From the NCBI RefSeq assembly GCF_054482595.1, contig NZ_CM137008.1: a stretch of DNA of 64,000 nt; one strand, written 5' to 3'. The position numbers were made by a program, and so were the translations under genes. Numbering within the stretch: the first letter of the stretch is position 1; each line of letters begins with the position of its first letter. The notes under the pieces were generated by a model. That model saw nothing but the letters and a program-made list of their open reading frames with translations. It did no database searches and was not told the origin of the DNA. This document shows, piece after piece, positions 24,008-24,151 of the stretch.

Positions 24008-24151
24008 TTAATCATCAAAGATTGGGCTGTCAGCATCATCAATGTTACATGTATCACAGTTTTGTTGAGATAATTCTGGACGTTTAAAATTTTGAGCTGA
24101 TTCACATGCATTTAGCATTATTACCATGAGAAACAGCATGATATATTTCAT
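24008..24151 (-). CDS. Small putative secreted or lipoprotein peptide (47 aa), not in the ORF track
   Basis: ATG 24151 preceded by AAGGAG at 5-nt spacing; MKYIMLFLMVIMLNAC... signal-like N-terminus with Cys at position 16; 35 bp downstream of the autotransporter stop. Confidence 0.35.
   Translation of the reverse strand: MKYIMLFLMVIMLNACESAQNFKRPELSQQNCDTCNIDDADSPIFDD

Follow-up and report, generated by a model that had tools for sequence, protein, structure and literature searches.

Does a reading frame of fewer than 50 codons, lying just 3′ of an autotransporter gene, encode a protein, and if it does, what might that protein do? The question is raised by positions 24008–24151 (minus strand) of a 64,000-nucleotide stretch of contig NZ_CM137008.1 (NCBI RefSeq assembly GCF_054482595.1), which was analysed over its full length and is called the window below. 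The original prediction, made from the sequence alone, described an unannotated 47-codon open reading frame (ORF) with a strong ribosome-binding site and a signal-peptide-like N-terminus, and suggested a small lipoprotein or a secreted peptide. Comparison with homologous loci indicates that the ORF is very probably a real, selected small lipoprotein gene belonging to a polysaccharide-utilization operon, of which the window retains a relic.

The short reading frame and its homologues

Translation of the minus strand from 24151 to 24008 yields MKYIMLFLMVIMLNACESAQNFKRPELSQQNCDTCNIDDADSPIFDD*, and the parts of the gene are the following:

24008–24151, minus strand: coding sequence of the small prelipoprotein, 47 codons plus stop (ATG...TAA), from translation
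24107–24151, minus strand: predicted signal peptide, codons 1–15
24104–24106, minus strand: codon of Cys16, the last residue of the lipobox L-N-A-C
24011–24106, minus strand: predicted mature acidic peptide, 32 residues
24157–24162, minus strand: Shine–Dalgarno site AAGGAG, 5 nt (TGGCG) before the ATG at 24151
24152–24186, minus strand: 35-nt spacer between the autotransporter stop codon and the ATG of the small ORF

The ORF, the AAGGAG hexamer 5 nt upstream of its start and the 35-bp distance from a same-strand autotransporter gene (24187–26874) are thus all where they had been placed. The cysteine count was partly right: Cys16 is present, and the "three more" cysteines are in fact two (Cys32 and Cys35), giving three in total. 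A GGAG-like, purine-rich site occupies the position of the hexamer in each of ten homologous loci. An alternative GTG start at 24157, taken from the ORF listing, was rejected because it overlaps the Shine–Dalgarno site. The combination of features is rare in the window: among 427 ATG-initiated candidates of 30–80 codons, 11 have a Shine–Dalgarno match, 4 have a lipoprotein-like N-terminus and 2 have both. The second ORF with both features (8116–8223, minus strand) lies out of frame within another autotransporter gene and is taken as spurious; the enclosing gene, at about 7595–11092 (minus strand), encodes a second autotransporter of ~1165 amino acids (aa).

Word-indexed and exhaustive protein searches recovered ten distinct variants of the small protein from E. 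coli, Salmonella, Citrobacter and metagenomes, ranging from 98% down to 30% identity. Nine are 46–48 residues long; the tenth (P0046) had been predicted with additional upstream residues and was cut back to 48 before it entered the alignment. In all ten, the start carries a positive charge and leads into a hydrophobic core of freely varying residues; relative to the predicted cleavage site, position −3 is Leu, −1 is Ala or Gly and +1 is Cys. Glu occupies +2 in nine variants and Ser in one lineage. The acidic tail ends in Asp in every variant, and in eight it fits P-[VI]-F-[DS]-D. A lack of homologues with conserved cysteine spacing had been named at the outset as an observation that would speak against the ORF; homologues exist, and a CxxC motif occurs in seven of the ten variants, with CxxxC in one and neither in a lineage of two.

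Across the ten homologous loci this frame is free of stops in all, and the other five frames carry from one to nine. Among close copies, the variable sites at codon positions 1, 2 and 3 number 4, 4 and 10. The ratio of nonsynonymous to synonymous substitution rates (dN/dS, Nei–Gojobori) falls between 0.14 and 0.5 for most pairs, with a synonymous excess significant at Fisher p values from 7e-6 to 0.02; for the same pairs the neighbouring autotransporter gives 0.05–0.14. The ORF remains intact even where synonymous sites are saturated, as between the window and the homologous locus L008. Judged by these sequence comparisons, the small ORF is under purifying selection. Truncated or frameshifted copies were seen in a few contigs (P0005, P0006), which indicates that loss of the gene does occur.

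The kind of product is suggested by the N-terminus. In the window allele, Lys2 is followed by the uncharged hydrophobic stretch YIMLFLMVIML at residues 3–13, an arrangement of charged start and hydrophobic core that recurs in all ten variants. Leu13, Ala15 and Cys16 agree with the −3, −1 and +1 positions of the PROSITE lipoprotein profile PS51257, and the cysteine falls within its range of positions 15–35. The full PS51257 pattern is matched by five of the eight variants tested (lipoboxes LSAC, LVGC and LCAC). Below threshold, the protein also matches more than 20 unrelated lipoprotein models, in each case through the signal peptide and lipobox. The best single NCBIfam match is TrbK_RP4 (TIGR04359), with 19 bits over residues 4–38 against a cut-off of 23 bits; four of the ten variants match this model at E ≤ 1. 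TrbK, an entry-exclusion lipoprotein, resembles the product in being small and containing cysteine, but there is no conjugation context here. The mature peptide, 28–32 residues long across the family and 32 in the window allele, has a net charge of −3 to −7, an isoelectric point of ~4 and a grand average of hydropathy of about −1, and it is modelled as unstructured (predicted local distance difference test, pLDDT, 25–30 in AlphaFold2 fusions). The first of the two products originally suggested is therefore carried by the N-terminus in ten of ten variants, the PS51257 pattern in five of eight, the lipoprotein-model matches and the selection on the ORF, and a secreted, non-lipidated peptide becomes a minor rival.

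The description of the gene as unannotated applies to the ORF track on which it was based. Elsewhere the gene is known: the identical protein stands in RefSeq E. coli genomes as WP_001767846.1, a "hypothetical protein", and it bears the name "Lipoprotein / uncharacterized lipoprotein" in one public source. Several complete E. coli chromosomes match an 801-base segment around the ORF at 100% identity. The exact protein occurs on at least 1000 contigs of a public collection, and copies that differ very little come from Citrobacter and from Salmonella enterica, subsp. salamae among them. In Pfam the window protein has no match (E ≤ 10), in NCBIfam it has only sub-threshold matches through the signal peptide, and no PDB sequence matches it significantly. 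An exhaustive HMMER profile search of 1.84 billion representatives returned the family itself and two low-complexity false positives, and the literature yielded no mention of WP_001767846 or of the operon in Enterobacteriaceae. The databases thus already list the gene as hypothetical; its product falls into a narrow family of lipoproteins, so far uncharacterised and tied to a classical autotransporter.

The operon and the autotransporter neighbour

A complete operon is found in E. coli E14, where the small ORF is the last cistron. The order is DeoR, phosphotransferase system (PTS) IIB/IIC/IID/IIA, a GH88/105 hydrolase, DUF2264, a 334-aa protein, a PL8 polysaccharide lyase, the autotransporter and the small ORF. 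The PTS is of the mannose/N-acetylgalactosamine family, and the PL8 lyase, taken to be periplasmic, carries a Sec signal peptide. The best explanation for this gene set is a horizontally mobile, rare enterobacterial unit for the use of a glycosaminoglycan-type polysaccharide. A parallel gene set is known from the streptococcal PTS-based pathway for hyaluronan and chondroitin disaccharides (PMC6837340), the likeness being one of gene content alone.

The 334-aa protein (L020 7936–8940 in E. coli E14), which precedes the PL8 lyase in intact operons and belongs to no Pfam family, has homologues in loci L002, L008, L010, L011, L012, L014, L018 and L023. It carries a signal peptide, a conserved cysteine pair and a C-terminal YNF, and is modelled as a beta-barrel (pLDDT 69) that is probably an oligosaccharide channel.

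The module is rare. In a census of 5426 complete E. coli genomes it was present in 62, of which 48 have the PL8 gene and ~14 the truncated form seen in the window. A profile search of genome contigs with the autotransporter alignment added a single locus, in S. enterica subsp. diarizonae, and no further diversity, which again points to rarity. In the window, homology to intact loci is limited to 26925–23949, a 2977-bp relic that comprises the autotransporter and the small ORF. The features around the small gene are:

24187–26874, minus strand: classical (type Va) autotransporter, 895 aa, the constant upstream neighbour
26884–26925, minus strand: remnant of the PL8 lyase gene, its last 42 nt (...RGSSYSFELSKNK*), the upstream edge of the module
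23952–23977, minus strand: conserved stem-loop ~30 nt after the stop codon of the small ORF, with no U-tract
23922–23940: bidirectional terminator-like hairpin in an IS200/IS605 remnant, outside the conserved module

The protein encoded at 24187–26874 has the C-terminal 12-strand beta-barrel (PF03797), the beta-helical passenger and the N-terminal signal peptide of a type Va autotransporter. Fold searches describe the passenger as a generic AIDA/TibA/Ag43-like beta-helix and gave no specific lyase assignment. In all loci with an autotransporter of 67% identity or more to that of the window, the small ORF lies 3′ of the autotransporter gene, and it does so also in the more distant locus L011. 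The gap between the two genes is 34–37 nt in nine of the ten loci and 92 nt in L011. A terminator-like site was looked for in the 35-nt spacer of the window (24152–24186) and none was found, which implies that the autotransporter and the small ORF are co-transcribed.

Locus L011 has a further peculiarity. Between 3695 and 9730 it contains two related autotransporter genes in tandem, of 589 aa and then 1164 aa. Behind the first stands a gene for a 48-aa lipoprotein; behind the second there is a remnant (...PGSCDSCAATESDAIRPVYDN*), which lacks both a lipobox and a clear start. This arrangement fits a duplication of the autotransporter–lipoprotein pair as a unit.

Possible roles of the lipopeptide

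Bacterial lipoproteins are matured by Lgt, LspA and Lnt and then sorted by the Lol system, for which Asp at +2 is an inner-membrane retention signal. If the product follows this pathway, the precursor would be exported by Sec and receive a diacylglyceryl group on Cys16 from Lgt. Signal peptidase II would then cut between Ala15 and Cys16, and N-acylation by Lnt would leave a triacylated 32-residue peptide. As the +2 residue is Glu (Ser in one lineage) and not Asp, LolCDE, LolA and LolB would be expected to deliver it to the outer membrane, into the inner leaflet. A strongly acidic, probably disordered lipopeptide would result, usually with CxxC, and with the conserved C-terminal P-[VI]-F-[DS]-D.

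Because of the gene order, the autotransporter is the most likely functional partner. We tentatively suggest, from this order, that the peptide may act beneath the outer membrane on the adjacent autotransporter, in its biogenesis, stability or retention. A narrower version, for which we see a rather low probability, makes it a dedicated type Va partner, in which the tethered acidic lipopeptide of ~32 residues would aid folding or insertion of the autotransporter or hold it in place. No lipoprotein dedicated to classical autotransporters is named in a 2021 review of type 5 secretion, and the narrower version, if true, would give the supposedly self-sufficient type Va class its first reported lipoprotein accessory factor.

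Several known systems offer a comparison. VirB7, TrwH and LvhB7 are tiny outer-membrane lipoproteins that bind and stabilise an outer-membrane partner. The product here is alike in kind and gives sub-threshold matches to the models concerned, of 12.8 and 16.9 bits for PRK13859 and NF041529 against cut-offs of 60 and 70. These matches are, however, confined to residues 1–19 or 1–26, that is, to the signal peptide, and the locus lacks a type IV secretion context.

Lipoprotein genes that share an operon with an autotransporter have also been described. SadB is described, in its original paper and in a later review (PMC3953254, PMC8151025), as a lipoprotein of the inner membrane, trimeric itself, with a type Vc autotransporter as its client; it is co-transcribed with the trimeric autotransporter SadA and needed for its proper surface display. 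FAD-I is a small lipoprotein of the four-gene radD autotransporter operon of Fusobacterium, an unrelated phylum (PMC7023056). Both were compared by description only, and they differ from the present case, in which the partner would be of type Va, the peptide has ~32 residues and its gene lies downstream.

LptM (YifL) is a small lipoprotein that assists oxidative maturation of the LptD barrel (PMC10567701). It resembles the product in being a small, largely disordered outer-membrane lipoprotein, and its target, like the autotransporter, is a cysteine-containing outer-membrane beta-barrel protein. In the LptM model (NF047847) one of the ten variants gave a match, at E = 0.069, and, unlike the LptM case, the cysteine pair of the autotransporter is kept here independently of the small gene. 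VirB7, LptM and SadB are precedents for small lipoproteins assisting outer-membrane proteins.

A number of observations weigh against a selected lipoprotein that serves the autotransporter. First, loci L010 and L023/L024, whose autotransporters are at most 58% identical, possess the barrel, the lyase and the autotransporter and lack the small ORF, a hairpin with a T-run standing directly 3′ of the autotransporter gene; autotransporters in general thus do not need the small gene in order to function. It is likewise missing beside an E. coli autotransporter whose similarity is confined to the C-terminal 56%. Second, the passenger cysteine pair C39/C45 is conserved regardless of the lipoprotein or its CxxC, and since the pair is invariant, no signal of co-variation between C39/C45 and the CxxC was obtained. 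Third, the CxxC-less lineage (P0044/P0064), found on more than 100 contigs, has dN/dS of up to 0.4–0.8, which is relaxed, and the loss of the motif in so widespread a lineage indicates that CxxC is not essential. Fourth, the LNAC lipobox of three of the eight variants tested, the window allele among them, fails the strict PS51257 expression, by the Asn at −2 only; the public source cited above nevertheless calls this exact protein a lipoprotein. Fifth, AlphaFold2 was used for tether-docking, in which a Gly/Ser linker of 30 residues joined the mature peptide to the autotransporter or to the 334-aa barrel; in both fusions the peptide stayed undocked (pLDDT 25–30), with no interface, a result whose weight is limited by the shallow pairing of the locus-paired alignments. 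Finally, the native promoter region is gone from the window. Beyond the PL8 remnant, to about 27262, lies a frameshifted ProQ/FinO pseudogene, followed by a dndBCDE/dptFGH phosphorothioation island, and as these replace the upstream operon together with its promoter, expression of the window copy is uncertain. A promoter scan found fewer promoter-like sites than in shuffled sequences, and we therefore make no claim of an internal promoter.

A reading that we consider possible, though doubtful, is that the product is an independent small outer-membrane lipoprotein serving the operon's polysaccharide use, its adjacency to the autotransporter being merely positional. It might then act, for example, in cation or substrate handling at the envelope, or as a partner of the 334-aa barrel or the PL8 lyase. 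The gene is terminal in a conserved operon that encodes three other envelope proteins. It is present with the operon version that contains DUF2264 and absent with the version that does not, and the absence of predicted docking to the autotransporter fits as well. On the other hand, the fusion to the barrel was equally undocked, a remnant of the gene follows the second autotransporter copy in L011, and the truncated E. coli module retains exactly the autotransporter and the small ORF, a retention that adjacency alone would explain.

An unlikely alternative takes the product as a lipopeptide of the bacteriocin-release or colicin-lysis type, which, by making the outer membrane permeable, would let the PL8 lyase that Sec exports reach polymer outside the cell. 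Colicin lysis proteins (PF02402) are lipobox precursors of ~45–50 aa with a mature lipopeptide of ~30 aa, and their gene closes an operon of which the main product has to be released from the cell. The format matches (precursor 46–48 aa, mature peptide ~30 aa, last gene in the operon), and an enzyme of the operon has a Sec signal peptide with no evident secretion system. In addition, hhalign aligns the signal peptide and lipobox with those of a colicin lysis protein. That match, however, spans 16 signal-peptide columns only, and past the signal peptide there is no similarity. In its mature part the product has a much more acidic composition than the colicin lysis sequence used for the comparison and usually has CxxC, and the operon is catabolic. 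Moreover, the Pfam model Lysis_col (PF02402) does not match the window protein and reaches E = 0.2 in one of the ten variants, and the lyase is present in loci without the small gene.

We give very little weight to processing by signal peptidase I in place of II, which would yield a secreted periplasmic peptide with no lipid. The Asn at −2 of the window lipobox, outside the PROSITE set, would suit it, but Leu at −3 with an invariant Cys at +1 is a signature of signal peptidase II. An AXA-type site is absent, the full PS51257 pattern holds for five of the eight variants tested, and every similarity found in the databases points to lipoproteins. Highly improbable, finally, is a chance ORF, or one whose translation matters only in cis (3′-end protection or Rho blocking) with a functionless peptide: a very short ORF at the 3′ end of an operon, just before a conserved hairpin, and the broken copies P0005 and P0006 would be expected from it, but dN/dS lies well under 1 with conservative replacements, and the lipobox cysteine, hydrophobic core and C-terminal motif persist at saturated synonymous divergence.

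With a selected small lipoprotein gene as the reading that we prefer, the locus illustrates that comparative data alone can argue for the reality of, and selection on, a protein of fewer than 50 residues, a size class often missed or left "hypothetical". Its setting is a rarely noticed PTS/GH88/PL8 operon, carried by some Salmonella and Citrobacter besides E. coli. If the peptide modulates autotransporter display or lyase release, it would bear on how the strains, many of them from poultry, engage the host matrix; if it does neither, it is one more small envelope lipoprotein.

The 3′ end and the surroundings of the window copy

The stem-loop at 23952–23977 is conserved in six further loci (L002, L003, L004, L013, L014 and L016). 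RNAalifold, applied to these seven loci including the window, predicts 17 pairs, six of them with compensatory double changes. The element is probably an operon 3′-end or stability element, as far as its predicted structure and position suggest. An Rfam search over the 4.4-kb region returned no RNA family.

The hairpin region is also the source of a database entry. A 50-aa "hypothetical protein" of Yersinia enterocolitica (CAP20144.1, P0056) opens with residues that correspond to a different reading frame of the hairpin region just 3′ of the small ORF, and this start compares with L013 at about 8885–8960. The annotation is probably spurious; it also hints at an occurrence of the module in Yersinia.

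On its downstream side the module ends at a remnant of an IS200/IS605 element, whose insertion point lies 59 nt past the small-ORF stop codon and which includes a transposase pseudogene at 23628–23840. In Salmonella the native downstream neighbour is a DUF1062 gene. Farther upstream in the window, an "accessory gene regulator B family protein" gene (L001 22308–22826, window about 34007–34525) lies between dndB-like and dptH genes, an unexpected neighbour in a phosphorothioation-restriction cluster.
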